Of a stretch of DNA of 59,116 nt, positions 1,906 to 44,111 are shown piece by piece. The notes under the pieces are model-generated. The model was not told where the DNA came from. It made no database searches and worked only from the letters and a program-made list of their open reading frames with translations. Position 1 is the stretch's first letter. Each line of letters starts with the position of its first letter. The position numbers and the translations under genes are program-made. The DNA is from an uncultured virus (IMG/VR IMGVR_UViG_3300020048_000047) (lineage: Duplodnaviria; Heunggongvirae; Uroviricota; Caudoviricetes): positions 62,001 to 121,116 of IMG/VR virus record IMGVR_UViG_3300020048_000047. One strand, given 5' to 3'.

Positions 1906-4900
1906 TTATATTATTCTCCATTTTGTATTATTACTTACAACATCTAACCATTCTTCTGGTTGTAGCGTAAATGTTATTGGGTTTCCGCTAGGTTTATTCC
2001 CTATTTCTTGACTACTAGTTGTGTTAACGATAACATTACCTAAACTAGCGTTAATCACACGATATGGTGTACCTAATGAACCTACAGCTGTTGGTAGTGT
2101 AATAGTACAAGCTGAAGTAGCTTCAACAGTAAAACCACTAGTTGTTAATGTATAGTTTGTTGACGTTATAACATATTTTAAATTAGCTGGCATTGGAATA
2201 GTAAAACCTTCGTCAATTACTTCAAAATAAGATGTCCAACTATAAGTATTAGCATTTACACCAGTAACTAATATATCTATTGTATTATCACTAATACCAC
2301 TATAAACAATCGCACCACCAGTAAATCCAGATGAAACTTTATCCAATACGTTACTTTCGTAAACAATTGTTGGGGTTCCACCAGTTGTAACAACACCAAG
2401 GATTCTTTTCCATACACCATATTCAGTAAGTGATTTACTTGCTGTAATATATGATTCTACAATATAAGTTCCACTTGTAAATCCACTAATAACACCTAAT
2501 AAAGTTTGTGTATTACCTGTTGTTACTAATACGTTTTTCTCTCTTAATGCGGCTCCAATACCTAAATCAATATTAAAACCTGTTGGTGTTGATGTTATAT
2601 TTATTGTTGCACCAGTTGAAGTTAATGTTCCACCTGTATATAAACCAGTTACATTGAATGTACCACCTGTATTGTTAGTAAAGATAGCTGTTCCGTTTGA
2701 GTAAGTACCACCAGTTGTATAAATATCAGTTGGTAAACCAAAATAAGTACCACCAGATATTGTATTTGCAGTTAATCCGTTGGTAAATATAGTTGGACCA
2801 GTTACGGTACCACCAGTAAATGTTCCGCTACCACCAATTGTTGATGCATTTCTATAATTAACTGAACCATCGGTATTTCTAACCAATACTTGAGTTAAAG
2901 CATCATTATTAGTTGGTGTTGCGGTTATATAAACTGTTTGTGCACTAGCAGTTGTGGCACTAGTACTACCGTCAGCTCTTATAAATGATGTAGTCGTTCC
3001 AGCAGTATTTTTACCTTCTATTAATGTAGTTATATTGTCAGCATTTCCAGTACCATTTTGAATTGATAATCCGTCAAGTATTGAATTAATGATGATTTCT
3101 GGTGTTGTGCTATTATTATACGCTTGTTGTAAAGATGTTGTAGAAATACCATTAACGCCCCCAACACTTTCACCGAATATACTAGCTGGTGTAAATACAG
3201 CATAAGTAGTACTATTCAAGACTGTTGACGCTCTTCTAACCGCTAATAACCCGATTAATATGCCTGTTGTCTTAACGTTAGGTGCCTTAACAAACGTTTC
3301 TGTTTGTTGGGCTGCCAATGCCAATGCTAACGTTTCATAAACTTGTTGACCATATTGTATATTAATATTACCAGATGGGTATAAATAAATTCTTTGATTG
3401 GTAGACCTATTTGCGTTACCATCGCCACCTGTTGGAATTGCGGTTATAACACCATTTAAGTCATAATTATTTGGGTCAATCAAAGTAACATATGTACTAG
3501 TACCACCAGTTTGTGTTCTATAATTAAAATCAGCTATTGTTTTTGCACTGATAGTAACTTCATTTGGGTTTAATTCATTATTAACCCAATTAATACCCAT
3601 ACCATATAAATTCCCACTATTAATGTTAAAATTAAGGTTGGCACCATTTGGATAACAAGTAACACTATCATTAATTAATTTAATTGATACAAACATATCT
3701 CTTAAAGCAGACATCGGGCTCACACTATAATCAACATTATTATTAATTGATATAATAGTAGAATGGTCTGGATGGGCTATTTTACCTAAAAGTATATTTT
3801 CTCTACGTTGTTGTGCAGTTGGGTATGATGTTTGTTGGAAAATTGTATTTCCCGTTGTTAATAAAATATAAGTTTCATCAGCAGATGCAATATTTGTTAC
3901 AGTTAAACCAGTTTCACCAGTATAATTAACAAGTGTTGTATCTGGTGCAAGAGCGGTGTCATATGTGTTATGAACTATCCAACCTCTTGCTGGTGCTACA
4001 TTAAAAGTATTTGTTGATGCTGTTGTTATACCGCTAAATTGATAAACACCAGTTGAACTGACATTACCATTTAAAATATTAATTTCTCTATCGGTTAACG
4101 ATAATGATGTGTTTTCATTTCTAATACTAACAAGGATTTTACCTGTAGTTGTACCAGTATTTATTACCCTACCAATTTTATTAATCCTAGAACTTAACGC
4201 TATATTATTTGTATCATATTCGAATCCACCAACAACCTTATCAGAAAGATATACAGTACTACCAGCTGTAGTTCCAGTAATCATTAAATCTCTAACAATA
4301 CCAAAATTAGTTATAAAACCATAAGAACCATTAGCTATATCATGTGTTGCAACACCAGAAACTTCACTATCATCATATACGATGTTACCAGTAGCTAATG
4401 TAACCGTTGGTGCACCATCAGTACTTCCATTTATGTGACATACTTGACCATTATTGATTTGTACACCAGTATTGTTATAGACTCTAATTAAATTTTCTTC
4501 ACCAATATTAAGTGTTACATCCATATTTGGTGTATTCGGAAAATATGATAAAGCATTTTCATTTGGGTCAAAATAAACTCTACCAGCAACAGGTGTTACT
4601 GTTGTTGCGGTACTACCAGTTGCAAAATCTAGATATTGATTAACATGAATTGTGTCGGCACTAATACTTGTTGCTGATAAACCACCATTAATAGTTAAAC
4701 CAGTCATAGTATTTATTGTAATATTTGATGTTGTCCCAGAATTGGTTGTAAATGTTATAACATTATTTGAATAACTAGCACCAGTAAAATAGGTTCCAAG
4801 AGTTGTTCCCGTATTAAATCCAGTTACAGTAAATGTACCACCTGTATTATTAGTAAATGTAGCTATACCAGTAACATCAGAGTAAGTACCACCAGTTACC

Positions 4901-5497: not shown

Positions 5498-7174
5498 CTA
5501 TCTTATTATTTCCCAATTTGATGACCAAGTATAATTTTTAGCTGTTTCACCACTAATTCTGATACTTACATTTCCACTATTTGCAGAATATATTACCGAA
5601 TTAGGTGTCATTCCACTTGAAATTCTATCAAAATCAGAATTTTCTCCAATAATTGTTAAAATTCCAGAAACTTTATTAACCGCAAGTGTTCTTTTCCAAA
5701 ATCCATAATCAATATTATCTTTATATGCTGAAACATACGAAACAATAAATGAATTTGCATTATTTGTTATCCCACTTAGTGTATCAATCGTCAATATTGT
5801 ACTATTTGTTGTTGTTGCACTCGCATTAGTTAACAATCTAAATGGTAATATCGTGTCAATATTAACATTATCGTTTCTAGTTAGTCTTAAATTCTTTGTA
5901 CTAGGTGTAAATGTAGTACCAGTGACATAAACATCGGTACTTCCAGTATAAAAACCACTAACAGTAAATGTACCACCAGTATTATTTCTGAAGGTAGCTA
6001 GACCAGTTGAATTATTATATGTACCGCCAGTAACATAAACATCAGTTGAACCTGTATATAAACCACTAACATTAAATGTACCGCCAGTAGTATTAATAAA
6101 GGTTAATGAACCATTAGAATATGTACCGCCAGTAATAGTAATATCAGTTAAAGCGGCTACAGTGAATGTACCGCCAGTATTATTAGTAAACACATATGTT
6201 TTACCTGTATTATTTGCCGTACCGCCAGTAACATAAACATCGGTAACCCCAGTATAGTATCCAACTATGCTGAATGTACCACCAGTATTATTGGTAAAGA
6301 TTGTTGTTCCGTTTGAGTAAGTACCACCAGTAATATTGATATCCGTTAACGAATTGACATTGAACGTACCACCAGTTGAGTTTGAGAAGGTATAAAGTCT
6401 TAAAGTATTGTTAGGTGTACCGCCAGTGACATATGGTAGGCCCGTAATACTAGACCCATCACCGTATATTTTATTAGCGTTGATGGTATCTGCGGTAAAA
6501 CCACTAGTACTTAATGTATTAAATGAACCATCATTAGAACCAATACTATTAGCCATTACGACATCTAAATAAGTTATACCTGTTACGGTAAAATTACCAT
6601 TGATTGTTAAACCAGTAAATGTATTGATATATGTGTTTAAACTAATACCATCATTTCTAACAATAAGTAATTGATTATCAGTAAAAGTAACACCAGTAGA
6701 ATATGTATCAGCGGTAAATGTATCTAAATTTAAAGTATATGCTGATAAAGTATCATTTCTATCAAAATAAACGGTAGTTCCGATAAGTGTTGCCCCAGTA
6801 GTATAATAGTCAGTTAAACCAGTAACGCTAATTATGTTCCCATTAGTTTTATAAAGGCTAAGTGTATCGGTAATATTATCAAATGTACCACCAGTAATAT
6901 TATTAGCATCTATTATGTTAAATAAATTGGTGCCGCCACTATAAAATGCTGAAGCGTTAATAGTTGTTGCCGTTAAATCATTATTGGTATATAAATTACC
7001 ATCAAAAGTAATTATACCACTACCCATGAAGATTTGTGTGTCACCACTACAAGAGATAACAGCATTTGTATATAATGCCGTACACGCAGTTAATGTTGGA
7101 CTACCACCAGTAATTGATAGCTGTTCAATAATAAATGTTTCGTTGATACTTGAAGAATTACTTATGCAGCTCAT
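5498..7174 (-). CDS. Tail fibre-like protein with TGGT repeats
   Basis: About 6 copies of a ~32-aa DVYVTGGT..FTNNTGGTF repeat; C-terminal domain (YGFWKR..DRISSG) paralogous to the YGVWKR..DKVSSG domain of 1906..5451. Confidence 0.75.
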   Translation of the reverse strand: MSCISNSSSINETFIIEQLSITGGSPTLTACTALYTNAVISCSGDTQIFMGSGIITFDGNLYTNNDLTATTINASAFYSGGTNLFNIIDANNITGGTFDNITDTLSLYKTNGNIISVTGLTDYYTTGATLIGTTVYFDRNDTLSAYTLNLDTFTADTYSTGVTFTDNQLLIVRNDGISLNTYINTFTGLTINGNFTVTGITYLDVVMANSIGSNDGSFNTLSTSGFTADTINANKIYGDGSSITGLPYVTGGTPNNTLRLYTFSNSTGGTFNVNSLTDINITGGTYSNGTTIFTNNTGGTFSIVGYYTGVTDVYVTGGTANNTGKTYVFTNNTGGTFTVAALTDITITGGTYSNGSLTFINTTGGTFNVSGLYTGSTDVYVTGGTYNNSTGLATFRNNTGGTFTVSGFYTGSTDVYVTGTTFTPSTKNLRLTRNDNVNIDTILPFRLLTNASATTTNSTILTIDTLSGITNNANSFIVSYVSAYKDNIDYGFWKRTLAVNKVSGILTIIGENSDFDRISSGMTPNSVIYSANSGNVSIRISGETAKNYTWSSNWEIIR

Positions 7175-7175: not shown

Positions 7176-8237
7176 TTATATTGTATTTCCTATTAATTTA
7201 AAAATTCCGTCATTATAAAATCCTTTATAAACCCTAACATTAACTGTATCGTTAGCATTTATTATTAAAGGTGTTGATAGTACAGTTCCATCGAAAACAC
7301 TGATACCATTAATTGATATTATTATTCTAGTAATGTTTTGTATATCAATTAATTGTGTAAAACTTACACCATATTTAGCTATAAATGTAAATTGTGGTTC
7401 GGCTTTAGGTTTAAAATCGAATGTATAAGTAACACCATTAAGATTTGATATTGGTTCAAAAATAACGTTACTATTTATTTTTATTTGTTCTTCTACTTCC
7501 ATACTAAACATAGTTCTATTTGCGGTTGGAACAACTTCATAATCATCTTCATCTTGGATATACCCTAAAAGTTTCATTTCGAAGAGTTGAACATAAAATC
7601 TTCTGTTTTCTAAATCATCTATATTGCTTTCATCACCGATACTTTCTAAGTGTAAAGGCATTGGATGTCCGTTAACATTAATATAACATTGTCTAGATTG
7701 AAAAGCTCTTTGAATAGCTCTATTAAATTTATTCAAATCTTGCATTCTATTTGTAAATAACCTAATTTCGTATGACATATCTACTGATGTTGGTTGTGGT
7801 ATTTTATATAAATCAACACCGTGTCTAACACCATCCCAAGTAGGAACTTTGAGTGTTGTGTATGTTCGATTACCTGGAATATTCCATAATCCAGCTTGGT
7901 TTTGACCTTGTTGAATATCTGGTTTTCTAATAACTGTAATGAATGGAAGTTCGATATTTTTATATTTATCGGCAAATTGCCATGTTTTACTAAATTCTGT
8001 CCATCTTTGAATAGTCAGAAATATAACTGGAACCTTAGTTCCATCAATATTTAATGACATACGTTTATCAGACTCAATAAACTCTAGAACTGATTGGTCC
8101 ATATCTTCTTCTAATACACCTCTAGGTAGAAAGGTACCGTTATCGGTTATACCATCGAGTATTTCTTGTCTACGTTCTGGTCCAATTTTACCTACTTTTA
8201 TATTAATGTTGGTTCTAAAACCTTTTGGTACTGCCAT
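7176..8237 (-). CDS. Tail completion/terminator protein (T4 gp15-like)
   Basis: LPFITVIR and PTSVDMSYEIRLFT resemble gp15-family motifs; next to a gp14-like gene. Confidence 0.55.
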   Translation of the reverse strand: MAVPKGFRTNINIKVGKIGPERRQEILDGITDNGTFLPRGVLEEDMDQSVLEFIESDKRMSLNIDGTKVPVIFLTIQRWTEFSKTWQFADKYKNIELPFITVIRKPDIQQGQNQAGLWNIPGNRTYTTLKVPTWDGVRHGVDLYKIPQPTSVDMSYEIRLFTNRMQDLNKFNRAIQRAFQSRQCYINVNGHPMPLHLESIGDESNIDDLENRRFYVQLFEMKLLGYIQDEDDYEVVPTANRTMFSMEVEEQIKINSNVIFEPISNLNGVTYTFDFKPKAEPQFTFIAKYGVSFTQLIDIQNITRIIISINGISVFDGTVLSTPLIINANDTVNVRVYKGFYNDGIFKLIGNTI

Positions 8238-8255
8238 TTTAATTTAATTTTAAGT

Positions 8256-8777
8256 TTATACTCCACGGAATTCTGATGCATCAACAGTTGCACAAATAAC
8301 TGTTCTGAAAGCACTTTTATATCCCATTATTGTATGTTTGTTATCGTAATTTTTAATACCATCATTAACAACACTGAAATACCTTATTTCAGTTTCGGAA
8401 ACTGGGTAACCAATATAATCACCATAACTTAATGATGTTTTTAAATCGGTTAATTGTTGGTCATAAATACCAAAAGTTAATTGCCCATCAGCTATATATC
8501 TAAGACCACCATTTGGATTATAAGCCTTATTCTCTGGCTCGGCCATAATAGGTATTACTTTTAGTTCTAGTGGTGGGAAAAATCTAATACCATCTTTTGA
8601 TGCTTCACCATAAAGATTACTAGCTTCAGACATTTCACTATCAACTCTATAAAGAATTACAGTGAAATTTCCATCACCTTCAATAGCTTCTCTACCCATA
8701 CTAATTTCTAAATCGAAATCTTCATGTGCAAACCACTTATTAATACGTGTAATTGGGGTTAATTTTTTATCGTTCAT
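8256..8777 (-). CDS. Head closure/neck protein (T4 gp14-like)
   Basis: VILYRVD..NLYGEA..F.PP.EL pattern and GDYI motif typical of head-closure proteins; late motif upstream. Confidence 0.55.
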   Translation of the reverse strand: MNDKKLTPITRINKWFAHEDFDLEISMGREAIEGDGNFTVILYRVDSEMSEASNLYGEASKDGIRFFPPLELKVIPIMAEPENKAYNPNGGLRYIADGQLTFGIYDQQLTDLKTSLSYGDYIGYPVSETEIRYFSVVNDGIKNYDNKHTIMGYKSAFRTVICATVDASEFRGV

Positions 8778-8787
8778 TGTTTTTTAT

Positions 8788-8795
8788 TATAAATA
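8788..8795 (-). promoter_or_regulatory. Putative late promoter motif TATTTATA
   Basis: Sense-strand motif 10 nt upstream of the ATG at 8777. Confidence 0.6.
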
Positions 8796-8825
8796 TTTAT
8801 CTTTTGGTTAATAAATAATAAACCC

Positions 8826-8856
8826 TTGATTTTTACGAAAAGTTTTATTATATTTA
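8826..8856 (+). promoter_or_regulatory. Host-type (Bacteroidota sigma-A-like) promoter of the helicase
   Basis: TTG-N20-TATATTTA, one mismatch to TAnnTTTG. Confidence 0.5.
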
Positions 8857-8888
8857 GTAACAATCACTAGGAATTAAACTAAAAAAAT

Positions 8889-10733
8889 TTGATAAATTTA
8901 AACGATATTAAAGGACATAACGCTTTATCTATAATAGGTGACTATCAAGGTATTAATCCATACTTATTAAAACTTAAAGTTGAGTACTTAAAAAATAAAA
9001 AATTAGCATTGACTGAAAATCAGTCTTCATATATTCTCAATAATTATAATAGAGAACCACAATATATTAATCGAGTAGTTAGTATTACTAGTTTTTTAGG
9101 TGAATCGCTTAAAAAACAAGAGGAATTAACATTTACACCAGAAAAAATTCTAATTGAATTTATACTTGCTGAAACAGAAAAAACATTTCACATATATGGC
9201 AAGCTTAAACAAAATCAGAAAGAATCTAAAATGTATTTCATACCAAAAACCCAATTAACTGATGACCCATATTTTGAACCTATTGATATTGAAGTTGATT
9301 TTGAAAAATATGATAAAATACTTGGTAAGTTAAATCCACCCAAAAAGTTATATCAACACCAAAAAGATGGTGTTAAATTTTTATTATGTAGAAATGGTAG
9401 TATTCTTGCCGATGATATGGGCTTAGGTAAATCAATGACTTCAATCATTGCGGCTGTTGAAAGTGGTGCTGAAAATATTCTAGTTGTTTGCCCTTCATCT
9501 GCTAAGATTAACTGGGAACGTGAAATAAATGTTTTTTGTAAAGATACTGCAATTGTAGATGGTAAAAAATGGGCGAAAGCTAAATTCACCATTATTAATT
9601 TTGACATTCTTAAAAACTTTCATACTCTTGTTAATACAAGAAAACAATTAACTGATGAACAAATTTCACAAATCAACAGAGATTTAGTAAATTCTAATTT
9701 TGATATAGCTATTGTCGATGAAGCACATAATCTTAAGAATAACGAAAGTATTCGTGGGAAAATTATGGTTGAACTATGCGTTAAACATAATATTCCAAAG
9801 GTTTGGTTATTGACTGGTACACCTGTTGCAAATAGACCTATGGACTTCTTTAATTTATTAAAGATAATTAAGAGCCCTATAGCGGAAAATTGGCGACATT
9901 ATGCTACTAGATACTGTGAGGGTAAACAGTTCTTTAAAACGCTTAAAAATGGCCAAAGAAAGCAAATTTGGTTAACCAATGGTGCTAGTAATTTAGATGA
10001 GTTAGCTTCTAAAACAAAAAACATTCTTTTAAGAAGAATGAAAAAAGATGTATTGGACATGCCAGATAAGGTAATAACACCAGTATATCATAGGTTAAGT
10101 ACTAAAAGTCTTGTTAAATACGATGAACTTTGGAATGAATATTTGCTTAAACGAGAAGCTGAGGGTAAAAATACTGATTTACAAAAAGACCTTGTTGAAT
10201 TGATATTATTAAGACAATTCATTGCCGCTGAAGCCATTCCAGATACTATTGAAATGGTTGAAAATGCATTGGAAGCTGGTAGGAAAGTTATTATTTTCAC
10301 TAGTTTCACAGATGAATTAGAAATTTTATGGCACCATTTTGGTAAAATATGTGTTAAACATAATGGTCCTATGACCAATAGACAAAAACAACATTCTGTT
10401 GATGAATTCCAAAATAACCCTAAGATAAAAATATTTATTGGTAATATAAAATCTGCTGGTGTTGCTATTACCCTTACTGAAGCTACGGTTGTTATATTTA
10501 ACTCATTTTCATGGGTTACTGGTGATAATGAACAAGCTGAAGATAGGTCTTATCGTATAGGTCAAAAAAATGATGTAGCAGTATATTATCAATTATTTGA
10601 AGACACAATATCAACTAGAATGTGGGAAGTACTTAAAAACAAAAAATCGGTGATTAATACTATACTTGGTGAAAAAACAACGTGTAATGAAACTGAAGAG
10701 ATAATTAATTCAATATTAAATGGGGAATTATAA
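8889..10733 (+). CDS. SNF2/SWI2-family helicase (DEAH)
   Basis: Walker A LADDMGLGKS, IVDEAH, LLTGTP, motif VI QAEDRSYRIGQ; TTG start. Confidence 0.93.
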   Translation: MINLNDIKGHNALSIIGDYQGINPYLLKLKVEYLKNKKLALTENQSSYILNNYNREPQYINRVVSITSFLGESLKKQEELTFTPEKILIEFILAETEKTFHIYGKLKQNQKESKMYFIPKTQLTDDPYFEPIDIEVDFEKYDKILGKLNPPKKLYQHQKDGVKFLLCRNGSILADDMGLGKSMTSIIAAVESGAENILVVCPSSAKINWEREINVFCKDTAIVDGKKWAKAKFTIINFDILKNFHTLVNTRKQLTDEQISQINRDLVNSNFDIAIVDEAHNLKNNESIRGKIMVELCVKHNIPKVWLLTGTPVANRPMDFFNLLKIIKSPIAENWRHYATRYCEGKQFFKTLKNGQRKQIWLTNGASNLDELASKTKNILLRRMKKDVLDMPDKVITPVYHRLSTKSLVKYDELWNEYLLKREAEGKNTDLQKDLVELILLRQFIAAEAIPDTIEMVENALEAGRKVIIFTSFTDELEILWHHFGKICVKHNGPMTNRQKQHSVDEFQNNPKIKIFIGNIKSAGVAITLTEATVVIFNSFSWVTGDNEQAEDRSYRIGQKNDVAVYYQLFEDTISTRMWEVLKNKKSVINTILGEKTTCNETEEIINSILNGEL

Positions 10734-11228
10734 TTTTTTTCTCCTTAATTTATTTCTGTTTAAATTACCTTCATAAACAACACCATTTATTTCCCTAGTT
10801 GTTGACCACATCGGTCTTAAATTAGATAATGCATTAACTATATTAGGTGGTGTATCTTCTGAAAATTCAATAACATTTTTAATATGGTCAACATGCCACT
10901 CACCATGATTATCCCATGACATACCATCAGTAAATAATGTTTCTATATGTTCTTTAAATTCTAGAGCTGAGTAACCAAGAAGGTCAATTGTATAACCTTC
11001 TTTTTTACCATTCATTCTCCATATTGACATTTTTAAAACACTTCTCCATAACCCAACATGTTTATTTGATTTTTTATATTCCAAACGTTTATCTCTATTT
11101 TCAATATTATATTTTCGTTTATATTCATTTTTACAGTTTTTACATAAACTATAGTAATAAGTACCATTTCTAGGAAAATCAGTTAATGGTTTTTCGTAAC
11201 CGCATTTACTGCAAATCTTCTTTTCCAT
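10728..11228 (-). CDS. HNH homing endonuclease with N-terminal Zn finger
   Basis: CSKC..CKNC zinc finger; GMSWDNHGEWHVDHI..NALSNLRPMW HNH-type core. Confidence 0.8.
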   Translation of the reverse strand: MEKKICSKCGYEKPLTDFPRNGTYYYSLCKNCKNEYKRKYNIENRDKRLEYKKSNKHVGLWRSVLKMSIWRMNGKKEGYTIDLLGYSALEFKEHIETLFTDGMSWDNHGEWHVDHIKNVIEFSEDTPPNIVNALSNLRPMWSTTREINGVVYEGNLNRNKLRRKKL

Positions 11229-11677
11229 TATCGTGTGAATAATCTAAATTTATTATTTTCTAAATCACAACCAGCTAAATAAATATATATTTTTTTATCT
11301 TTGTTTTCGTTAATGAAATTTAGTAAATCACCAAAATATGTCTGTGTTTGAAATAAATGTCCTTCGGAATCATCGTCAACTATTTCATTACCAAGCATTA
11401 CAACCATTGGTTTATTAATAATTATTATATCACCATCACCTGTTAATTTAGTATGTAATTTAACAAATAATGAAATTTGTTTTTTAATATGTTCTTCTCT
11501 ATCTAACTTTGTTTTTATTTCACTTAAGATAAAATCGTGTATTTTATTTGACATTGTTGTTTTTTCAAGTTCACAAATTTCTTTAAATTGATTTTTAATT
11601 TCTGTGTTAATTCTAACATTAATTTCTTCAGTTTTCATTTTTCTTTGTTTTAGTTTTTTATTATTTTGTAGGTACAT
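11228..11677 (-). CDS. Ribbon-helix-helix (CopG-like) DNA-binding protein; start may be 11638
   Basis: MKTEEINVRINTEIKNQFKEICELEKTTMSNKIHDFI matches the RHH beta-alpha-alpha pattern. Confidence 0.6.
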   Translation of the reverse strand: MYLQNNKKLKQRKMKTEEINVRINTEIKNQFKEICELEKTTMSNKIHDFILSEIKTKLDREEHIKKQISLFVKLHTKLTGDGDIIIINKPMVVMLGNEIVDDDSEGHLFQTQTYFGDLLNFINENKDKKIYIYLAGCDLENNKFRLFTR

Positions 11678-11683
11678 TGTCCC

Positions 11684-11699
11684 TATATTTATAAATATA
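11684..11699. promoter_or_regulatory. Perfect palindrome TATATTTATAAATATA containing the late motif
   Basis: 16-bp perfect palindrome directly upstream of the RHH/HNH pair. Confidence 0.45.
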
Positions 11700-11760
11700 A
11701 CTAAATTATTAAAAAAATAAAAAACTTTACTTTTTAATTATTTTTTTTATTTTTGTCTAT

Positions 11761-11967
11761 AATGAACAAGCTGAAGACCGTGCATTCCGTATCGGCCAGA
11801 AGAATGATGTTAATGTTTATTATCAATTATTTGACAATTCAATTTCAACTAGAATGTGGGAAATGTTACAGAACAAAAAAGATGTTATAGCAACAATCAT
11901 GGGTGAGAAAAAATTAACTGAAGATGAAATAACTACCTTGATGGTAGATGAACTATTTAAAAATTAA
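11761..11967 (+). pseudogene. Displaced original 3' end of the SNF2 helicase
   Basis: Open 68 codons NEQAEDRAFRIGQKNDVNVYYQLFDNSISTRMWEMLQNKKDVIATIMGEK..; 39/50 aa identical to the helicase C-terminus by manual alignment; no start codon at its 5' end; stops 4 nt before the glutaredoxin ATG. Confidence 0.9.
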
Positions 11968-11971
11968 TAAA

Positions 11972-12238
11972 ATGGGTATAGTAAAAGTATATGGTGTAGA
12001 TGGTTGTCCATATTGCACAGAATTAAAAGAACTTCTTAATAAAGAAAAGATTGAATTTACAGATGTTGATGTAAATTTACCAGAAAACCAGACTGAATAT
12101 AATCAGATTTATAAAATAACAAATTCTGATGATGTGCCGATTGTTAGAGTGAATAAAAGACTTCTAGTACCAAACGTTTCATATCAAACAATTCAAGACG
12201 CTGTTGATTTAACTAAAAAATTCTTAGCTGAAGATTAA
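11972..12238 (+). CDS. Glutaredoxin/NrdH-like redoxin
   Basis: CPYC active site and DVP cis-Pro motif; likely start ATG 11972. Confidence 0.9.
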   Translation: MGIVKVYGVDGCPYCTELKELLNKEKIEFTDVDVNLPENQTEYNQIYKITNSDDVPIVRVNKRLLVPNVSYQTIQDAVDLTKKFLAED

Positions 12239-12253
12239 TTGTATTTTTTCTGA

Positions 12254-12261
12254 TATTTATA
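12254..12261 (+). promoter_or_regulatory. Putative late promoter motif TATTTATA
   Basis: TTTTCTGATATTTATA, identical to 56111-56126; 14 nt upstream of the ATG at 12276. Confidence 0.6.
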
Positions 12262-12275
12262 ATTAAAGTTAAAAT

Positions 12276-13418
12276 ATGGCAGTAAATATAGAAGAACGTG
12301 AAAAGTTATTTAGACAACTTAAACATTCATTGGGGGCACCAATTCGTCAAATAGAATTAGAAGATGAAACATTATGTACTCTTCTTGAAATTGCTATTGA
12401 AGATTATTCTCAATATGTACAAGAATGGTTGGTTGAACATCAATGGCAATCACTATTAGGTCATAACGTTGATACAATGGATATGGCTTTTGCATTAAGT
12501 GTTAGAAGTTTCGACTTTATGACACAATACACTTATGCTTATTCAAAACAAGTTGGATTACAAACCAATGGTCCATGGGAACTTAAAAAAGATTTCGTTG
12601 AACTAGAAGCTGGTAGACAAGTTTACCAAATTCCAGCCAACCGTGAAGTAAATGAAGTTTTATGGATTACACCACCAGCAACTAGTCAAGCTTTATTGGC
12701 CAACTATGGTGGTATTGATTATGGCTTCGGTGGTGGATTTGCACAAACAGGTGGTGGTACAGGTACTGGTGGGCCAGGTTTTGCTCGCCAAGGTTATTAC
12801 ATAGCACCAGCTTTTGATATTCTTTTAACAGCTGCTGATATGAATCTAAAAAATAGAATTGTAAGAAGTGAGCTAGTTTATAAAATAACAGCTGGACCTA
12901 ATGGAACAAAATTATTACACTTACTATCAGTACCAGGTTCTAAATTATCATTTGGTCAAGGCGTTGGTGGTTTAGGTAGCAGTATTAATATGACTGGTTG
13001 TCAAGTTTGGTATCATTATTATGAAACTAACCCAGAAAATCTTGATGCATGTAAAAAAGATAATCCAGATATTATTAAAATGCCTAACCAAGTTCCTTTA
13101 GCTAAGTTAGATTACGCTGATTTTAATGAACCAACTAGAACATTAATTAGACAATTGTTTATAGCAGAAGCTAAAAAAACACTAGGTAGAACTCGTGGTA
13201 AATTTGGTGGTATTGTTGGCCCACCAGAAGCCGAAAGAACTATGGATTACGAAACACTTATTAGTGAAGGTAATGAAGAGAAAAAAGGTGTTTTAGAGCG
13301 ATTAGATGCAAGATTATTAAGACTTTCAAGTACTGCACAATTAGAAAGAGGTGCGAAAGAAGCAACAGATTTAAATACAGCAATGAAATTCAGACCATTA
13401 GGGTTCTGGGTATATTAA
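12276..13418 (+). CDS. Neck protein (T4 gp13-like head-tail adaptor)
   Basis: LGAPIRQIEL..IAIEDY at the N-terminus and AEAKKTLGRTRGKF at the C-terminus match gp13-type neck proteins. Confidence 0.7.
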   Translation: MAVNIEEREKLFRQLKHSLGAPIRQIELEDETLCTLLEIAIEDYSQYVQEWLVEHQWQSLLGHNVDTMDMAFALSVRSFDFMTQYTYAYSKQVGLQTNGPWELKKDFVELEAGRQVYQIPANREVNEVLWITPPATSQALLANYGGIDYGFGGGFAQTGGGTGTGGPGFARQGYYIAPAFDILLTAADMNLKNRIVRSELVYKITAGPNGTKLLHLLSVPGSKLSFGQGVGGLGSSINMTGCQVWYHYYETNPENLDACKKDNPDIIKMPNQVPLAKLDYADFNEPTRTLIRQLFIAEAKKTLGRTRGKFGGIVGPPEAERTMDYETLISEGNEEKKGVLERLDARLLRLSSTAQLERGAKEATDLNTAMKFRPLGFWVY

Positions 13419-13449
13419 TAAAAAAAGGGGCCTTAAGCCCCTTTTTTAT
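13419..13449. terminator. Bidirectional intrinsic terminator
   Basis: AAAAAAAGGGGC-CTTAA-GCCCCTTTTTT between convergent genes. Confidence 0.85.
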
Positions 13450-13450
13450 T

Positions 13451-16400
13451 TTAGAAATTCCATTCTTCCTTTTCAACTGGAACTTCTGGGATATAACCAT
13501 CTGGTGTTTCCCCATATGTGTCATCAAATTCATCGTCTAAAATTAATTCTTCATCACTTCTAACACTTTCACCATTTTCATCGACTTCTTCATTTTCATC
13601 ATCATCATCACCACCCTCACCTTCAGATTGTTTTTTCTTTTTCTTTTCCTCTTTAACGATAACAACATCTTTAACTTTTTCTTTTAATAAATCAGTAATT
13701 GTTTCGATATTTGGTTTTAATTCTTCTTCTAAAATATCCATTGTATCGCCAGTTAATACCTTACGTTCCATCATATAGTTTAGATATTCTTCATATTTGT
13801 TATCTAGATTATCAGTACCAGTTAACTTATAATATTCATTTCGTTTTATTGCTTCTTTTTCGTATTTGAATATATCATTTACAGTACATAATGGTTCATC
13901 CCATTTCCTAGATATTAGCATAGGTTCATCATCAACAATACCTACAGTCGCTAAAATGAAAGCATCGATTGGTAAACCACCACCAGAATCCATAATTTCA
14001 TTTAAATCTTTAACTTCCAAATGTTTAATTATATCTTCTATAACTTCTTTTTCATGTATAACACCCTCTATCTTAGCGATACGCATACGTTCAATATAAT
14101 CAGCTCTGATTTCTTCCCATTCTTCAACTTCCATATTATTTGGAACCTTATTAACACTATTCCAGAATCTAATTTCTTTATCTTCCATTTTCATAAGGTC
14201 TTCATACGAATCTTGGTCGGTTACTTTATTAGGCATACCAGATACTAGTTCACATTCACTATGTGTAAAGATAATTCTTTCTTTTAATTTCTCAGTAACT
14301 TTTTTAGTCGCTTTATCTTTAACCTTAACAATATCTAATGAAATTCTACTACGAATATCTGGATGGAAACAAACTAATAATGGTTTAACCTTTTTATTAA
14401 ATGCATCCAAATAACGAGCAACATTATATTCATCAGTGAACAATTCTTCATTGATTGAATTTATCCTAGCCTCAAGACTTTTAGATGCTTCAGAATCAGT
14501 ATCTTCTAATACTAGTAAAGCTTTTTTCAACATTTCAAGTTCTTTAATAATCTCGAAATCATGTTCAACTGTTTCTTGTGGAATCATTTTACAATTTAAT
14601 TCAACAATTTTATTAGCTGGTGGTAATGTAGCGTTGGTTTCCAAATATTTCTTTTGTTCTTTTTTGGTCATTTTGTTTTTATCGATGGTTTTTAAATCAC
14701 CATGCGATTTTGAACTACCAGTATTGATATAATAAATTACATCACCAAGAGTTACATCTAAATTTTCCCTCATTGCTAGTTCCATATGTGCTTGTTTAGG
14801 CATAGGATTACCAGCTTTATTTTTCATAGTACCTTTCTTCTTATAATCTGGTATAGATAACTTAACCTTAGCCTTAGAAGCTATTTTAACCAAAGGTATT
14901 TGATAGTTATAAATCTTATCAACATATTCGTAATAATGTTGAATAAATGAATATCCATCACCATCTAATAACATACGAATTGATTTAGCTAAAAATTCCT
15001 CAATATATACAGGCATTCTTTTTGATTTAACTGAGTTTCCTACTAATTTAATCTTATGTTTACCTTTTTTATCGATATCATTTGCATAGTTTTTTCTAGC
15101 AAAATTGATAGTTGAATAACAAATATCATCTATATCTAATCCCATACGACCAAACATGTAATTTTCGTTGAATTCGGCTAATACTGCATCTAATCCCACA
15201 AGTTCTTTACCAGCATCTTCTGTGGTTTTCCAATGGGTACCTTTAGCGACATATTTAATATCATTGATGTTATCTGGAAATGAAAAGTTAAAACCGTCAG
15301 TATCACCTACAAGTGCTTTAAAACCATGTTTTTCTGTAAAGTGTCTAACCATAAGTCGTAGATATTGTCTCCCACGACAAGTAGTTTCTTCAGCACAATC
15401 TGAATCTCCCCAATTAAAGATATATGGAGCACCATACGAACCGAACCATGAATTGGCAAGTATCTTAAGTGGTAACTGTTTCTTATCATATAAATTAGCT
15501 AATGCTTTGTGCTCTTCAATTTCCTTCTTTAATGCTTCAATTTCAGATGGAGTCATAGTTGAAGCTTCTTCTTTTAATTTAGCTTCTAATTTTTGGTAAA
15601 GTTTAGTTTCTTTACCAGTTAGGAATTTGAACTTATCACGAGTATCAACGATATATGTAAGGGTTCCTTCCATCATACCTGTAATATCTAGGTCTGGGAA
15701 AATAAGGTGTGTTAATTGAATCTTAGGATATAAGGCCGCAAAATCCAGCTTAACAACATTTCTAGCGTAACCAACTTCTAATAAACGAGCTAAACCACCA
15801 GTGAAATCACGTTTCTTTTGTGTTTCTGGGATTGCAAGTCCATTTTCATAAGACCAAGCAGACATAATAAGTTTCCATTGGCCAGCTGTTCCCATTGTTG
15901 ATGAACGTTGGAATGTTGTTGGTAGTATCTTACCAATAAGAAATGATGCTTGATTAAAAAGGTTATCAATTTGTTCGGTTTCCCATAAGTCATCACATAG
16001 ATATCTTTGAACTATATAATTACCTTTAACTATTTTGTAACCATCTTTTAATGGTTTAGTTTCAGTAATAATATACCAATCACCATCTTTATCGTTAAAA
16101 GCGTATTGATTGGTTTCATCACGCCATGTTGTGTTTATTTTATCACCTGGGACATAAACACGATTTGGTTTAGCTATTTCGGAGTATTGCGTAATATACT
16201 TCAAACCCCACGCTTTGATTTCAGAGTTGATAGCCATTGCTCTACGTACAGCATGAGAAATATCTATGATATTATAACCCCACATATTTGTTTGATTATA
16301 AGTTTCAGTTTCACCACCGAACTTTACAGTAGATGATTTACGTTTAATCTTAGATATTCTATTTAGTGTAATAGCGAAGTCGGTTATTTCCATCCCAAGT

Positions 16401-22412: not shown

Positions 22413-24161
22413 TTAGCAGTGACCATGATTTAAAATATTAATTCCGTATCTAGTAGCCTCTGTTTCATAATTATATTGGATATCACAAAATTTTAAATCA
22501 CAAATATTAAATTTAAATTGTGAAATTCCACCAATAAATGAACCAGCAAAATTTGTTTCAATTGGTAAGTTTTTATCCGAATAATCTATTCCATCAAAAG
22601 TTTGTGATTCAATAAGTCCTTGAGTACCACCACCTAAAGAGAAATTAAATGGCACACCAACTTGTTTTAAGAAACTATCATTGAGTCTTCTAGCAACAAA
22701 TTCATCAAAATCGTTAACAACAAATTTTAATTTAGCATTCACATAGAACATTAATTTACCTTTTCTATGTTTATCTGTTTTTAATTCACAGTCAGTTTTA
22801 TATTCTGTGATAAATCTTATAGCAATATAAGACCAAACATTATTTTGAACAACATTCGGAAATGAATAGCCTTCTTCAATAGTTACACCAGTTACGTAAG
22901 TATTTGCAGTTGTACATGCACCAGTAATGGTTAATAATCTGTAACCAATGCTACCATCATCTTTAATTCTAAAACCTAATGCGTTATCGATAATATCAGA
23001 CTTATAATCTAATGAAGTTTGGTCTTTTGTGAATCCAGTAAAACTACAAACAGTTTCGTTACCAAAACCATCATTTGGACCATCACAAGTTCCACAATTA
23101 TTTGTGGCACCACTTTTAGCGGCTCTACCGTAAATTAAAAATGGGTTTGTTTTATTTGTTACATCATGTGAATGTGTAACAACAACTTTACCGTTACCAT
23201 CATAAGAACAAGCAGTTTCAGTACCTAAACCATCATGAGAACCACCACAACTTGTACAAGTAGTACCACTTTTAGCAGCTCTACCATAAATTAGAAATCC
23301 GTTAGTTACTAAATCAACGTTGATTACTGGTGGGTTTAATGGAATCCCAACACCATATGTGCCGCCAGTTAAAATAATTTCATTTTCTTTAGGTATTGTA
23401 CACCACTCTGTTACAACATCAGTACAACCAGTTGGTTGAATACAATCAGCGGTACAGCCAGTATTTAAACCTTCAAATGTATTCCAAAATTTATTTTCTG
23501 CACGAGTACCCATATAAAAGAAAAATCCTTTATTGTTTGAATATGTATCGTTTAATGTAAGACCCGTATATGAACATAAATCTTGTGGTTTAACCCAAAA
23601 TTCTGCCGACCATGCTTGATTAACTCTAATTGGTAAAACTTCATAAGTATTTCCATCTAATTTGTAATAACCTTGGTAAAAACCACCACATAAATTAGAG
23701 TAATTTCCGCTTATATCCGACAAGATATCTATAGGGTATATGTAAGTACCAGTTGTACCAGTAACCCTGTTTAAATTGAGCCTATGGTCTCCAGAGACCA
23801 TGTTTATTGAACTACCAGTTAACACATTTAATAATGCTTGATTTGATGTATCACCGCTTGGTTTGTTGAAGGTAAATAATCCGTTATCAATTCCAGTTAA
23901 ACCAGCGGTATTCATAGTATATCCAGTGTTTATAGCCTTATCCCAAGTAACAAGACTATATATTGAAGTTGCTGATGTGGCACTACTATCGTAAATATTG
24001 TTATTATTGAAATCGTACCATACAACAAAACAATCACCAGACGTTAAACCATTACATAAATCTGTTGGTCCTTCATCGGTAGCCAAAAAGAAATCCCAAT
24101 AATCATCATGGGATAACTTAAGGTCTAACTTATTGAAATTGAAATTTTTAATATTTCCCAT
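22413..24161 (-). CDS. Cys-rich LamG-like virion protein
   Basis: WSAEFWVKP, WSYIAIRF, LMFYVN, FIGGISQF LamG strands; duplicated FLIYGRAAKSG..CxxC..C insert. Confidence 0.6.
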   Translation of the reverse strand: MGNIKNFNFNKLDLKLSHDDYWDFFLATDEGPTDLCNGLTSGDCFVVWYDFNNNNIYDSSATSATSIYSLVTWDKAINTGYTMNTAGLTGIDNGLFTFNKPSGDTSNQALLNVLTGSSINMVSGDHRLNLNRVTGTTGTYIYPIDILSDISGNYSNLCGGFYQGYYKLDGNTYEVLPIRVNQAWSAEFWVKPQDLCSYTGLTLNDTYSNNKGFFFYMGTRAENKFWNTFEGLNTGCTADCIQPTGCTDVVTEWCTIPKENEIILTGGTYGVGIPLNPPVINVDLVTNGFLIYGRAAKSGTTCTSCGGSHDGLGTETACSYDGNGKVVVTHSHDVTNKTNPFLIYGRAAKSGATNNCGTCDGPNDGFGNETVCSFTGFTKDQTSLDYKSDIIDNALGFRIKDDGSIGYRLLTITGACTTANTYVTGVTIEEGYSFPNVVQNNVWSYIAIRFITEYKTDCELKTDKHRKGKLMFYVNAKLKFVVNDFDEFVARRLNDSFLKQVGVPFNFSLGGGTQGLIESQTFDGIDYSDKNLPIETNFAGSFIGGISQFKFNICDLKFCDIQYNYETEATRYGINILNHGHC

Positions 24162-26929
24162 TAGAAGCTTTCTAAATTAGTTCTTTTCCAACCGTTTATA
24201 GTTTTGATATACAAATAGTTGTCGTCTCTTGTTATGTTTCCTTCATTACCACTAGTATCATTTGATGATGTTGGTGTATATGTTGGTATTGTTAATGCTT
24301 TTGATTTAAAATCATTATTTGTAATCCAATTACCATCCACATCAGTTTTTAAATCTGATGATAAACCAGTACCCATTCCGTGTAATACACTAATACCACC
24401 ACCGATAGCTGTTTGTTGATTACCAGAGTAGTTTAATTCGATATTATTATCCTCAGCAAGTATTGTTTGTGTGTTTATATTTGTAGTATTGGATGCTAAT
24501 TCTTTAACCGCTTCAACAAGTAATGCTGTAATGTTGTCATAATGAACACCCATATATTTTTCTGGTGTGTTATTATTAACAAACGTTAATTCTGGAACCA
24601 CATTTTTAACTTCTTGTGCTATGAAACCCATTCTTAATGCACCATCTGGTTCTGATAACCAATTATATGTTACACCTCTCAATGCTTTAACTTTATCCAA
24701 CGAATTAGTTAAAGGGTTTATGTTTGTTTTCATTCTAGCATCAGAAACAGCTGTTGATAATACACCAGTAGCTGTATAATATAGAGAACCAGCAGAAGCT
24801 GTTGAACCAATGTTTCTAAATCTAGCGTTATTTAAAACATCTAAATCTTCAGTTGGTGTAACAACATTAATACCTATCTTACCATTTGCTGGTACTATTG
24901 ATGGATTACCTATTGTTGTTGAATAAGTTCCTGTTCCAAATAAAACACCACCTATATTTATTGCATCAGCTGTCGCATTTGGTAATGATATATTGGTACC
25001 TATTATAATGTTGTTATTACCAACGTTATTAGCGATAAAATTAGGACCAGTTTTATAACCAATGAAATTTGAGTAACTTGAATCACTAGCACTATTACCA
25101 GCACCAACACCAATGAAATTAGAACCAGTTACCCCAGTTGCTTGATAACCAGCTTGATTACCAATGAAATTAGATTCATTTGAATTAATAGCATCATTAC
25201 CAGCTTGATTACCAATGAAATTAGAATAAGATGAGCCACTTGCATTATTACCAGCATAAATACCTATGAAATTAGAAAATGATGAACCAGATGCTTGAGA
25301 ACCAGCTTCAACACCAATAAAATTAGAATTAGCAACTAATGTTGCTATATTACCAGCACTCGAACCAATGAAATTTGAGTAACTTGAATCACTAGCACTA
25401 TTACCAGCACCAACACCAATGAAATTAGAACCAGTTACCCCAGTTGCTTGATAACCAGCTTGATTACCAATGAAATTAGATTCATTTGAATTAATAGCAT
25501 CATTACCAGCTTGATTACCAATGAAATTAGAATAAGATGAGCCACTTGCATTATTACCAGCATAAATACCTATGAAATTAGAAAATGATGAACCAGATGC
25601 TTGAGAACCAGCTTCAACACCAATAAAATTAGAATTAGCAACTAATGTTGCTATATTACCAGCACTCGAACCAATGAAATTTGAGTAACTTGAATCACTA
25701 GCACTATTACCAGCACCAACACCAATGAAATTAGAACCAGTTACCCCAGTTGCTTGATAACCAGCTTGATTACCAATGAAATTAGATTCATTTGAATTAA
25801 TAGCATCATTACCAGCTTGATTACCAATGAAATTAGATGAAGATGAATCATTTGCGAATTCACCAGCATTATTACCAATGAAATTAGATACATTAGAACC
25901 AGTTGCTGTATAACCAGCTGCGTTACCAATAAAATTAGAACTAGATGAATTAATTGCACCACTACCAGCATTATTACCAATGAAATTAGAATAGGATGAA
26001 TCATGACCACCACTACCAGCATTTTGACCGATGAAATTACAATCTCTAGCGTTATAAGCTCCATTACCAGCTTCATAACCAATGAAATTAGAAAAAATAG
26101 TTGCACCAGTTGCTTGATAACCAGCATAATCACCAATAAAATTTGAATTAGTTGCAATTGTTGCATTAACACCAGCATTATTACCGTAAACAAACATTCC
26201 AGAGGCTAATGCTTCAGCACCATCACCCAACGCTATTGAACCAGCCCCAGTTGCAATAGGGGCTGTTGTTGGTGCAGCAACGTTTTCAGCGTACCAATGC
26301 AAAGTATTACCAGATGTTACACCAGAAGCTGGCATCCATCCACCCATACCTTCAGTATCACTACAAACATATATGTAATTAGGTTGTGCATCTTTGGTTA
26401 TAATAAGTCTTTCAGTTCTTGTAATACCAGAAACATCATTCCAAATTGTTCTACCTGTAAAATCTAATGTACTAGCGGTAAGAACATCTAATATATATGT
26501 AAGCATTGTTCCACTGTAATTCATTGGACTTAGTTCAACCATTTGAATATCATTGATATCGAAACTAACACCAGTATAAGCTAGTGAAACTATATTCCCA
26601 TCAATTGTTGTTACAGAACTTGGTGCATATACTTGGCCAGTATTTTGAGTAATACCAGAGTTTGAAGGTGTAATTGCTGATAGAGTATTTATTGCTAATT
26701 CCATTCTTGGGTCATACCAAGTGAAGATTGTTGTAGTATCATTACCAGAAAACGTACTAACTATTGATGTATAATTTTCTGAAACACCAGATGTTGTTAA
26801 ATCTGGACCGCTAGTTAAAGCACTAAATGTTAAGCCAAATGACGTACCACCAGACAAAACTGTCATAGTAGCCTCATGTTGTTTTACTTGTCTATTGCTT
26901 GAAAAGTCTAATTTTGTTTTAAATGCCAT
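24161..26929 (-). CDS. Tail fibre/spike with 17-aa SNFIGxxAG repeats and an S74 chaperone domain
   Basis: More than 20 copies of SNFIGxxAG; SDARMKTNI..LRGVTYNW..GFIAQEV is a peptidase S74 signature. Confidence 0.85.
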   Translation of the reverse strand: MAFKTKLDFSSNRQVKQHEATMTVLSGGTSFGLTFSALTSGPDLTTSGVSENYTSIVSTFSGNDTTTIFTWYDPRMELAINTLSAITPSNSGITQNTGQVYAPSSVTTIDGNIVSLAYTGVSFDINDIQMVELSPMNYSGTMLTYILDVLTASTLDFTGRTIWNDVSGITRTERLIITKDAQPNYIYVCSDTEGMGGWMPASGVTSGNTLHWYAENVAAPTTAPIATGAGSIALGDGAEALASGMFVYGNNAGVNATIATNSNFIGDYAGYQATGATIFSNFIGYEAGNGAYNARDCNFIGQNAGSGGHDSSYSNFIGNNAGSGAINSSSSNFIGNAAGYTATGSNVSNFIGNNAGEFANDSSSSNFIGNQAGNDAINSNESNFIGNQAGYQATGVTGSNFIGVGAGNSASDSSYSNFIGSSAGNIATLVANSNFIGVEAGSQASGSSFSNFIGIYAGNNASGSSYSNFIGNQAGNDAINSNESNFIGNQAGYQATGVTGSNFIGVGAGNSASDSSYSNFIGSSAGNIATLVANSNFIGVEAGSQASGSSFSNFIGIYAGNNASGSSYSNFIGNQAGNDAINSNESNFIGNQAGYQATGVTGSNFIGVGAGNSASDSSYSNFIGYKTGPNFIANNVGNNNIIIGTNISLPNATADAINIGGVLFGTGTYSTTIGNPSIVPANGKIGINVVTPTEDLDVLNNARFRNIGSTASAGSLYYTATGVLSTAVSDARMKTNINPLTNSLDKVKALRGVTYNWLSEPDGALRMGFIAQEVKNVVPELTFVNNNTPEKYMGVHYDNITALLVEAVKELASNTTNINTQTILAEDNNIELNYSGNQQTAIGGGISVLHGMGTGLSSDLKTDVDGNWITNNDFKSKALTIPTYTPTSSNDTSGNEGNITRDDNYLYIKTINGWKRTNLESF
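25058..25837. repeat. Perfect 306-bp tandem repeat, about 2.5 copies
   Basis: Units start at 25058, 25364 and 25670; each encodes 6 x 17 aa. Confidence 0.9.
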
Positions 26930-30882: not shown

Positions 30883-30902
30883 CGTTACATAAATTAAATA
30901 AA

Positions 30903-31322
30903 ATGAGTAAAAAACAAGATTTAAAATTAGTTTTTGATTTTCTTGCCGACTTTTTAAAAGAAGAAACAAAGGAAGAAATTAAAGTAGAAACTAAGGTTGG
31001 TGGAACTAAAGAAGAAAAAAACAATGGATATGAAGAAAGTGTTAAACACATTCAAAAATTAATTCTTTTAACAGACGCAATCAACAATGAAAAAGCATCA
31101 CATAGAAGGTTTAAAGACCAATTAAAAGAAACTGAAACTAAATTATTTGAAGAAGATATGAGTGTTATCGGTTTAGGTTTAAAAAAAGTTGATACTAAAA
31201 AACTTGAAAAATTAAAAGACACTCTAATCGATGCGAAACATGTTATGAAAAGAGCTAATGTAAATCATCCGATTAAAGAATCCAATCAAATTACTGAAGG
31301 ATTTATTGGAAATAATGAATAA
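30903..31322 (+). CDS. Hypothetical coiled-coil protein
   Basis: 139 aa K/E-rich ORF followed by a terminator. Confidence 0.55.
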   Translation: MSKKQDLKLVFDFLADFLKEETKEEIKVETKVGGTKEEKNNGYEESVKHIQKLILLTDAINNEKASHRRFKDQLKETETKLFEEDMSVIGLGLKKVDTKKLEKLKDTLIDAKHVMKRANVNHPIKESNQITEGFIGNNE

Positions 31323-31327
31323 ATAAT

Positions 31328-31354
31328 AAAAAAACCACTTAGGTGGTTTTTTTT
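31328..31354 (+). terminator. Intrinsic terminator
   Basis: AAAAAAACCAC-TTAG-GTGGTTTTTTTT. Confidence 0.85.
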
Positions 31355-31364
31355 ATGTCAAAAA

Positions 31365-31396
31365 TTTGTTATTGTCAAAAATTATAAGTATATTTG
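31365..31396 (+). promoter_or_regulatory. Bacteroidota-type promoter
   Basis: TTTG-N20-TATATTTG, a full consensus match. Confidence 0.75.
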
Positions 31397-31428
31397 TAAA
31401 AAATAACGATTTCTTTAAAACAAAACAA

Positions 31429-32576: not shown

Positions 32577-32579
32577 ATT

Positions 32580-32604
32580 AAAACCCCTTAAATGGGGTTT
32601 TTTT
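32580..32604 (+). terminator. Intrinsic terminator
   Basis: AAAACCCC-TTAAAT-GGGGTTTTTTT. Confidence 0.85.
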
Positions 32605-32614
32605 ATATTATGCC

Positions 32615-32645
32615 TTGACTAAACAATAAAAAATAAGTATATTTA
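32615..32645 (+). promoter_or_regulatory. Host-type promoter of the glycan operon
   Basis: TTG-N20-TATATTTA immediately before the ATG at 32656. Confidence 0.55.
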
Positions 32646-32655
32646 AAATAAAAAT

Positions 32656-32793: not shown

Positions 32794-32797
32794 CAAT

Positions 32798-32959: not shown

Positions 32960-32992
32960 GTTTTTATTTTTGTTAGATATTTATTAATAAAG

Positions 32993-35912: not shown

Positions 35913-35914
35913 AT

Positions 35915-39000: not shown

Positions 39001-39002
39001 AT

Positions 39003-43638: not shown

Positions 43639-43639
43639 T

Positions 43640-44110: not shown

Positions 44111-44111
44111 T

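Follow-up and report, generated by a model that had tools for sequence, protein, structure and literature searches.

We describe a candidate homing element in an SNF2-type helicase gene of an uncultured aquatic phage. The window, i.e. the whole stretch of 59,116 nucleotides analysed here, lies within a 121-kb virus record (IMGVR_UViG_3300020048_000047) that is about 34% complete according to CheckV. A mobile cassette, consisting of a foreign helicase end, a gene for a predicted HNH-type nuclease and a gene with a ribbon-helix-helix (RHH) domain, has replaced the last 71 codons of this helicase and left the original end stranded downstream as a stub, and it likely spreads by homing without splicing. 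We assign this reading a probability of roughly 0.8, judged from the sequences of the window and of loci of related phages, to which the L-numbers below (L176, L255 etc.) refer.

Layout of the locus

The helicase open reading frame (ORF; 8889-10733, plus strand, 614 aa, with SNF2 and Helicase_C domains) is followed by two antisense ORFs, a second copy of the helicase end, glutaredoxin, a head-tail adaptor-like gene and a family B polymerase. A first-pass annotation had reported that the helicase C-terminus occurs twice, and all of its coordinates and counts hold: 39 of 50 amino acids identical, a 19-bp direct repeat, a spacing of 1234 bp and 68 open codons. The second copy (11761-11967) has no in-frame ATG at its start; compared with the tail in use, its first 50 codons comprise 24 identical, 15 synonymous and 11 non-synonymous ones. 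The exact repeat (10525-10543, plus strand, covering conserved motif VI codons, and 11759-11777) opens a 153-nt repeat of 74% identity. A target-site duplication was rejected as its origin, given that the repeat is the conserved coding stretch NEQAED and is inexact in relatives. Also as reported, the stub's stop codon lies 4 nt before the ATG of glutaredoxin (11972), antisense genes lie between the copies (ORFs of 166 aa at 10728-11228 and of 149 aa at 11228-11677), and the stop codons of helicase and nuclease share the TTATAA at 10728-10733, the same sequence in which all ten nuclease genes compared terminate.

The first-pass annotation had itself raised the possibility of an assembly chimera, and two strains might have been merged in the record, which is a single metagenomic contig, 34% complete. 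Nevertheless, contigs from two public runs (X1 and X2, possibly the source sample) bridge the helicase-nuclease and stub-glutaredoxin junctions with zero differences, and the nuclease-plus-stub layout is present in 13 further loci. Because the layout recurs in other phages, an assembly error is hardly conceivable. The sequence of the record is present in aquatic metagenome runs, with no RNA run among those listed; no cultured relative was found, the best match among phage records covering the helicase only at about 30% identity. The joint expected from a 1234-bp deletion between the repeats is absent from Logan contigs, which drop rare variants and, at a depth of about 4-5, are uninformative either way. 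No further cassette copies were found in the genome, of which the record represents about one third.

Ancestry of the two helicase ends

In cassette-free ("empty") alleles, a stub-like tail adjoins glutaredoxin, as the first-pass annotation had expected of relatives lacking the cassette. Most of these alleles carry a proline codon where the window has Thr544 (Pro and Thr alleles hereafter). A search with the helicase protein yielded 37 loci, of which 35 hold the site. The nearest live tail is that of a cassette-free Pro allele for nine of the ten distinct stubs among the matches listed, the tenth stub being cut by a contig end at 23 codons. The stub of the window (11759-11967 including the second repeat copy, plus strand) has 85% nucleotide identity to the live tail of the empty Pro allele L197 and 70% to the tail in use of its own gene.

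In a tree of tails (75 rows, with 37 of the 72 distant Pro alleles left out and a bootstrap not entirely settled), one clade (support 97/94) takes in 13 of 14 cassette tails, together with six nuclease-free Thr alleles and with neither a stub nor a Pro allele. The replacement end of the window (10518-10733, plus strand, 71 codons and stop) groups with these cassette tails. The seven stubs lie outside, scattered over the tree and needing six changes. In a host tree built from 900 nt upstream (88 rows), the 13 cassette rows require 11 changes, compared with a shuffled mean of 12.3, and are often sisters of empty alleles. The own clade of the cassette tails and the scatter of cassette rows on the host tree imply that the cassette moves between hosts together with its own tail. 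Which of the two ends is original can be regarded as settled: the host's own helicase end survives as the downstream stub, and the cassette brought in the tail now in use. Comparison of related phages shows the cassette present or absent at one site, its tail with an ancestry of its own and the stub with that of the host.

These results bear out the initial proposal of an element that has no intron and provides its host gene with a new 3' end. The proposal that this end is recoded and cleavage-resistant stands only for the replacement, which proved to be a divergent allele with amino-acid changes rather than a synonymous recoding; its resistance is a prediction. Cassette-free alleles with a cassette-type tail, which the first-pass annotation had named as a finding that would speak against it, do occur in part, namely as the six nuclease-free alleles in the clade, and cassette remnants are evident in two of the six.

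Edges of the element

A near-identical pair of occupied and empty alleles locates the left edge. L176 (occupied) and L255/L223 (empty) match in 41 of 41 upstream blocks at 58-60 of 60 bases over about 2.4 kb, and divergence begins at the third base of a Val codon and the Pro codon that follows. The stub of L176 is identical over 300 nt to the live tail of the empty allele, and it lacks about 8 bases in the surroundings of the Pro codon. In general, stubs start 0-6 bases upstream of the NEQ codons, just past the Pro/Thr codon. From the junction of this pair, the element in the window therefore extends from about 10518 to 11758, with a replacement end of 71 codons; codons 1-543 (8889-10517, plus strand; Pfam SNF2-rel_dom 4e-33, Helicase_C 3e-13; phrog_62) form the host part of the gene. 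The 19-bp repeat, initially taken as the edge, is exact, but the left edge lies further upstream at about 10517-10518: the element starts at the Pro-to-Thr change, three codons before the repeat.

The Pro/Thr codon

The Thr544 codon (10518-10520, plus strand) occupies a position at which most cassette-free alleles have Pro, as do solved SNF2 proteins, in which it aligns to the Pro of W-N-P or F-N-P (1z5z and Fft3); the replaced Pro is kept in archaeal and yeast SNF2 proteins within a W-x-P motif. The association of this codon with the cassette is strict among the 35 loci found by the helicase protein alone, a search blind to the codon, although the set includes several near-copies: all 12 Thr loci have the cassette or its stub, compared with none of the 23 Pro loci, three of which are too short to judge. 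Pattern scans, which fixed the Pro/Thr codon by design, returned 67 Thr stretches and at least 120 Pro stretches. Together with the window, the 68 Thr loci comprise 14 with nuclease and stub, five with nuclease and without stub, five with a nuclease at a contig end, one with a stub only, 41 with neither and two that are unclassifiable. Among the matches listed, a nuclease gene thus stands behind 24 of the 68 Thr alleles and behind none of the 120 Pro alleles, 106 of which could be classified, and after dereplication at 90% the ratio is 12/20 versus 1/66 (Fisher p 2.5e-6). In this test L220 was counted against the association; it was left out of the host tree, the tail tree and the fixed-position comparison. 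L220 had been flagged as a Pro allele with a stub; its tail frame breaks after a few codons, which we read as a probable frameshift or assembly error. A scan of metagenomes, whose contigs partly overlap the other sets, found 34 Thr loci, 12 with and 22 without a nuclease homologue.

Between positions -36 and +33, no other fixed difference separates 13 cassette alleles from 82 Pro alleles among the matches listed, and the Pro-to-Thr difference lies outside the 19-bp repeat. Association, alignment with solved proteins and the onset of divergence all point to the same codon, and Thr is likely an immunity mark at the left edge of the element. Three alleles have Ser at this position (L304, L305, L306), one of them with a cassette remnant; Ser is possibly a second immunity allele. 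L304 (1437-1982) keeps the RHH gene and a palindrome described below, without the nuclease.

An intein occurs in the same helicase motif, ten codons past the Pro/Thr codon (L016:6633-7718; also L033, L034, L121, L130 and L162). Among the matches listed it is present in 12 Pro and six Thr loci, in none of them together with the nuclease cassette. A further intein-like insert, likewise in frame, is located at the helicase's Walker A motif in many relatives (L035:3357-6311; L051).

Fate of the stub

All seven distinct full stubs are open. Among the matches listed, comparison with their nearest live Pro tails shows 80 synonymous and 20 non-synonymous codon differences; pairs of live tails show 873 synonymous and 407 non-synonymous differences, and the neutral expectation is 18% synonymous. 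This raises the question of whether the stub is a functional alternative end, such that recombination between the repeats, as the first-pass annotation had suggested, or separate translation yields a second helicase form. The open stubs and their mostly synonymous differences would fit such a function, as would the chimeric alleles found in other phages and the fact that a deletion between the repeats leaves an open frame of 614 aa. That deletion is one-way, however, and would remove the cassette permanently. Furthermore, the stub has no conserved start, an in-frame stop directly precedes it in L038 and L039, it is absent from five nuclease-bearing loci, it has been lost in several cassette lineages (L149, L157, L173 and L180), and in L174 it is eroded from the 5' end. 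The identity of one stub with a live tail explains openness by recent stranding. Stranding is favoured because of this identity, the lack of a conserved start, the stop in L038/L039 and the five stubless nuclease loci, and a functional second end is accordingly improbable; the proposal of two isoforms was not upheld. The most plausible role of the stub is that of the element's right homology arm, which each homing event would renew.

Partial loss takes several forms. L125 has lost the nuclease and the RHH gene and kept the stub; L174 has lost the nuclease, and the RHH gene and the last stub codons remain before glutaredoxin; L120 retains only a remnant of the nuclease. The tail of L158 is chimeric, cassette-like for about 125 nt from Thr and then identical to the Pro allele L202 up to the stop, which is the product expected from conversion of the tail only or from cassette loss by recombination, the two being indistinguishable here. 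In L031, the otherwise divergent copies of the helicase end (tail in use and stub; 6099-6170 and 7332-7400) agree without a mismatch over about 44 nt, which suggests gene conversion between them. L035 (6401-7567, same as L126) has a TnpB/Cas12f-like gene of 388 aa between replacement tail and nuclease, and the C-terminus of its nuclease is altered.

Genes and regulatory motifs of the cassette

The gene adjoining the replacement tail (10728-11228, minus strand, 166 aa) encodes a predicted beta-beta-alpha-metal (HNH/endonuclease VII-like) nuclease with N-terminal Cys pairs. It matches phrog_1035 (endonuclease VII, E 2.6e-21), phrog_2255 (E 2.7e-9) and HNH PHROGs. WHVDHI and NL-x-P-x-W are kept across 12 aligned homologues, D114, H115 and N136 are invariant and N155 and N157 nearly so; we take these residues to be the DH...N...N catalytic motif. 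Profile match and motif thus agree on the HNH/beta-beta-alpha-metal class, and the HNH label of the first-pass annotation stands on PHROG and motif evidence, though not on a Pfam HNH match. The core is well conserved, with 57 of 110 residues invariant in ten cassettes. A fold search with the weak structural model gave as best rows Hpy99I (Z 4.0, root-mean-square deviation 1.6 over 38 N-terminal residues) and PacI (E 4.5). In the ESM Atlas the nearest clusters are unnamed viral proteins, and the nearest named HNH, at 0.89, is a lead only. Nuclease distance correlates with tail distance at rho 0.46 and with upstream helicase distance at -0.04 in nine cassettes, a comparison of ungapped, non-independent pairs that is not relied on.

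The second antisense gene (11228-11677, minus strand, likely start 11638) has an N-terminal RHH/Arc-like domain (phrog_228, E 1.8e-4), and the remainder is interchangeable between cassettes: weakly head-protease-like in cassettes of the L304 type, terminase-like in L180 and unnamed in the window. Fusions of the RHH domain to interchangeable domains that resemble pieces of phage head protease or terminase ATPase were seen in L176:853-1407, L180:1225-2082 and L129:1905-2312. A 21-bp imperfect palindrome (11667-11687) precedes the RHH gene in 14 of 16 cassette or remnant loci; elsewhere, it has one weak match in 80 Pro-allele loci among the matches listed and one other weak match in the genome. 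A palindromic pair of ATATTTAT motifs (11685-11698) faces the cassette genes as well as stub and glutaredoxin. The motif is found in sense upstream of 20 of 102 ORFs and in antisense in five; it faces the cassette genes in seven of eight right ends examined, and in those seven it faces the stub too. Conservation of these motifs suggests the palindrome as a candidate operator for the RHH protein and the ATATTTAT motif as a putative promoter.

Could a cryptic intron or a ribosomal bypass join the helicase to the stub? The insert sits within a conserved motif, a typical place for introns and inteins, and relatives have inteins in the same gene. But the insert consists of antisense coding sequence and a complete tail with its stop, its right edge is AT-rich and unconserved, the stub is dispensable, and an Rfam scan of 8000-13500 returned no intron match and two weak small-RNA matches outside the element. 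We consider this explanation very improbable. A group I or II intron and an intein were likewise rejected, given the lack of an Rfam intron match and an insert that holds a stop and antisense genes.

Proposed mechanism

The homing model can be outlined as follows. During co-infection, the nuclease would cut or nick a Pro-type allele at or near W-V-P-G. In the subsequent repair, the left end may pair with the donor helicase upstream of Thr and the right end with the donor stub; the cassette would be copied in, and the recipient's live tail would turn into the new stub, which would explain why stubs stay open without expression. A Thr allele without nuclease would arise where the right end pairs instead with the donor's replacement tail, or where the cassette is later lost by recombination. 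The cassette is probably kept under repression by its RHH protein, acting at the 21-bp palindrome, and transcription of glutaredoxin is probably maintained by the outward ATATTTAT motif. Allele-specific cutting, two-arm repair, immunity through Thr and autorepression are all inferred steps.

Several observations weigh against this model. The mostly synonymous differences between stubs and live tails fit continued use as well as recent stranding. The cassette tail of L157 falls outside the cassette clade, in a tail tree whose bootstrap is unsettled. The nuclease has no match in sequence searches of Pfam, NCBIfam and PDB, and its structural model is weak (predicted local distance difference test, pLDDT, 68; predicted template-modelling score, pTM, 0.39). 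Close homologues of the nuclease occur at unrelated sites without evident duplication (L050, L051), and the roles of operator and promoter are drawn from motif conservation. Finally, 41 of the 66 classifiable Thr alleles have neither a nuclease nor a full stub, and with so many Thr alleles lacking the cassette, Thr could be an older polymorphism carried along by chance.

The last points lead to an alternative in which the cassette is mobile and its nuclease is blind to the Pro/Thr codon, being inactive or having another target, so that ordinary recombination through the two arms spreads the cassette and Thr hitch-hikes. Such an explanation would accommodate the many cassette-free Thr alleles and the homologous nucleases at other sites, and free-standing nucleases of T4 cut far from their own genes (PMC2988022). 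It has to account, however, for a left junction that falls on the Pro/Thr codon itself in the near-identical pair, for stubs that begin just after this codon, for the replacement of a Pro that SNF2 proteins of archaea and yeast retain, for the conserved core of the nuclease, and for repeated gains over the host tree, which need a drive. We therefore regard it as unlikely, if less so than a functional second end, and prefer homing directed at the Pro-type allele.

Nuclease homologues were also observed in other settings. In L085, one is flanked on both sides by a copy (3485-3548 and 4696-4761) of the final 21 codons of a 598-aa gene, which presumably encodes a protein like the T4-type major capsid protein; this is the same design in another gene. 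Self-comparison revealed duplicated coding segments near nuclease homologues in L069:2592-3728, L082:4894-6281 and L103:1357-2510. A close homologue stands in opposite orientation behind a Thr helicase in L335:560-1156, and others lie between other genes in L051:3848-4435 and L050:3614-4351.

Comparison with known systems

The closest counterparts are the WHO elements of yeasts (at FBA1 in Torulaspora and Lachancea), for which the same homing model has been proposed and allele-specific cleavage tested (PMC7282813). As in WHO elements, there is no splicing, a nuclease gene is combined with a new 3' end for the host gene, the previous end remains stranded further downstream as a proposed second homology arm, and alleles about 99% identical upstream are divergent downstream. 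A preprint on WHO elements suggests that substitutions at a conserved neighbour of the active site may trade optimality for resistance (bioRxiv 10.64898/2026.08.13.744650). The locus matches this design in the following features: its nuclease gene separates a complete host gene from a fragment of that gene's 3' part, the stranded fragment is of host ancestry and the end in use of element ancestry, and occupied and empty alleles coexist, with discordant histories of the gene halves. The cassette does not belong to the WHO family proper, as its host gene is an SNF2 helicase and its nuclease matches endonuclease VII/HNH PHROGs. By that account, WHO proteins derive from LAGLIDADG/intein nucleases, have a zinc finger, operate in yeast meiosis and form tandem clusters, in contrast to the phage helicase host, the HNH/endonuclease VII-like predicted nuclease, and the RHH gene and palindrome found here, where no tandem clusters were seen.

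Mobile ORFs (mORFs) of fungal mitochondria likewise make gene hybrids, in atp6, atp9, cox2 and nad3 of Glomus and, as cited there, in atp6 of Allomyces (PMC3630166). They too insert a foreign C-terminus and a nuclease ORF, with the native end downstream grouping with relatives and the foreign end elsewhere (PMC3630166). They are mitochondrial and encode LAGLIDADG or GIY-YIG nucleases, in some cases in the reading frame of the host gene, unlike the antisense, HNH-type predicted nuclease of a phage; membership was rejected for a virus record without a LAGLIDADG or GIY-YIG family match.

With the free-standing homing endonucleases of T4-type phages (seg, mob; intronless homing and marker exclusion), the cassette shares the phage host, the lack of an intron, resistance through allele sequence, embedded promoters for downstream genes and conversion of markers near the cut (PMC2988022). 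The genes of those systems are intergenic with distant cut sites, or split a host gene into two expressed pieces, as in the nrdA of Aeh1 (PMC2988022). A split gene of the latter type was rejected here, as the upstream ORF is complete and the stub lacks a conserved start and is lost in some lineages. A duplicated, replaced gene end is not described for T4-type systems in the available text of PMC2988022, nor is a replaced phage gene end in that of PMC10448857, PMC12724721 and PMC5923468, and no phage case was found in the literature searched, mostly outside subscription journals and excluding supplements.

A broader reading, to which we give slightly less than even odds, would join these observations: phages may carry WHO-type elements built independently from HNH nucleases. 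By reading a single codon, the present one would have driven Pro-to-Thr, in a motif that archaea and yeast both conserve, across a jumbo-phage lineage and well beyond its current carriers; it would be self-repressed by an RHH domain fused to interchangeable passenger domains and compete with the intein ten codons away. Thr alleles would then be a lasting footprint of past homing. With this probable homing cassette, the third, splicing-free class of homing elements known from yeast and fungal mitochondria extends to phages and to an unrelated family of nucleases. If homing is right, a selfish element has altered, in many phages, a conserved residue of the helicase, with consequences for the reading of such substitutions and of gene trees. 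The locus offers a precise test: a candidate target is at hand, the candidate immunity mark comprises a single codon, and an occupied and an empty allele form a near-identical pair. If the reading holds, the cassette is a natural counterpart to engineered home-and-rescue gene drives. Annotation pipelines would label the stub a pseudogene and overlook the element.

Other features of the window

The glutaredoxin gene (11972-12238, plus strand; Pfam Glutaredoxin 8e-10) directly follows the helicase in empty alleles. Further downstream, a tandem array of units of about 153 nt (25046-26185) lies inside an ORF of 922 aa (24161-26929), and a long run of same-strand ORFs (29638-46665) appears, by eye, glycosyl- and methyltransferase-like.

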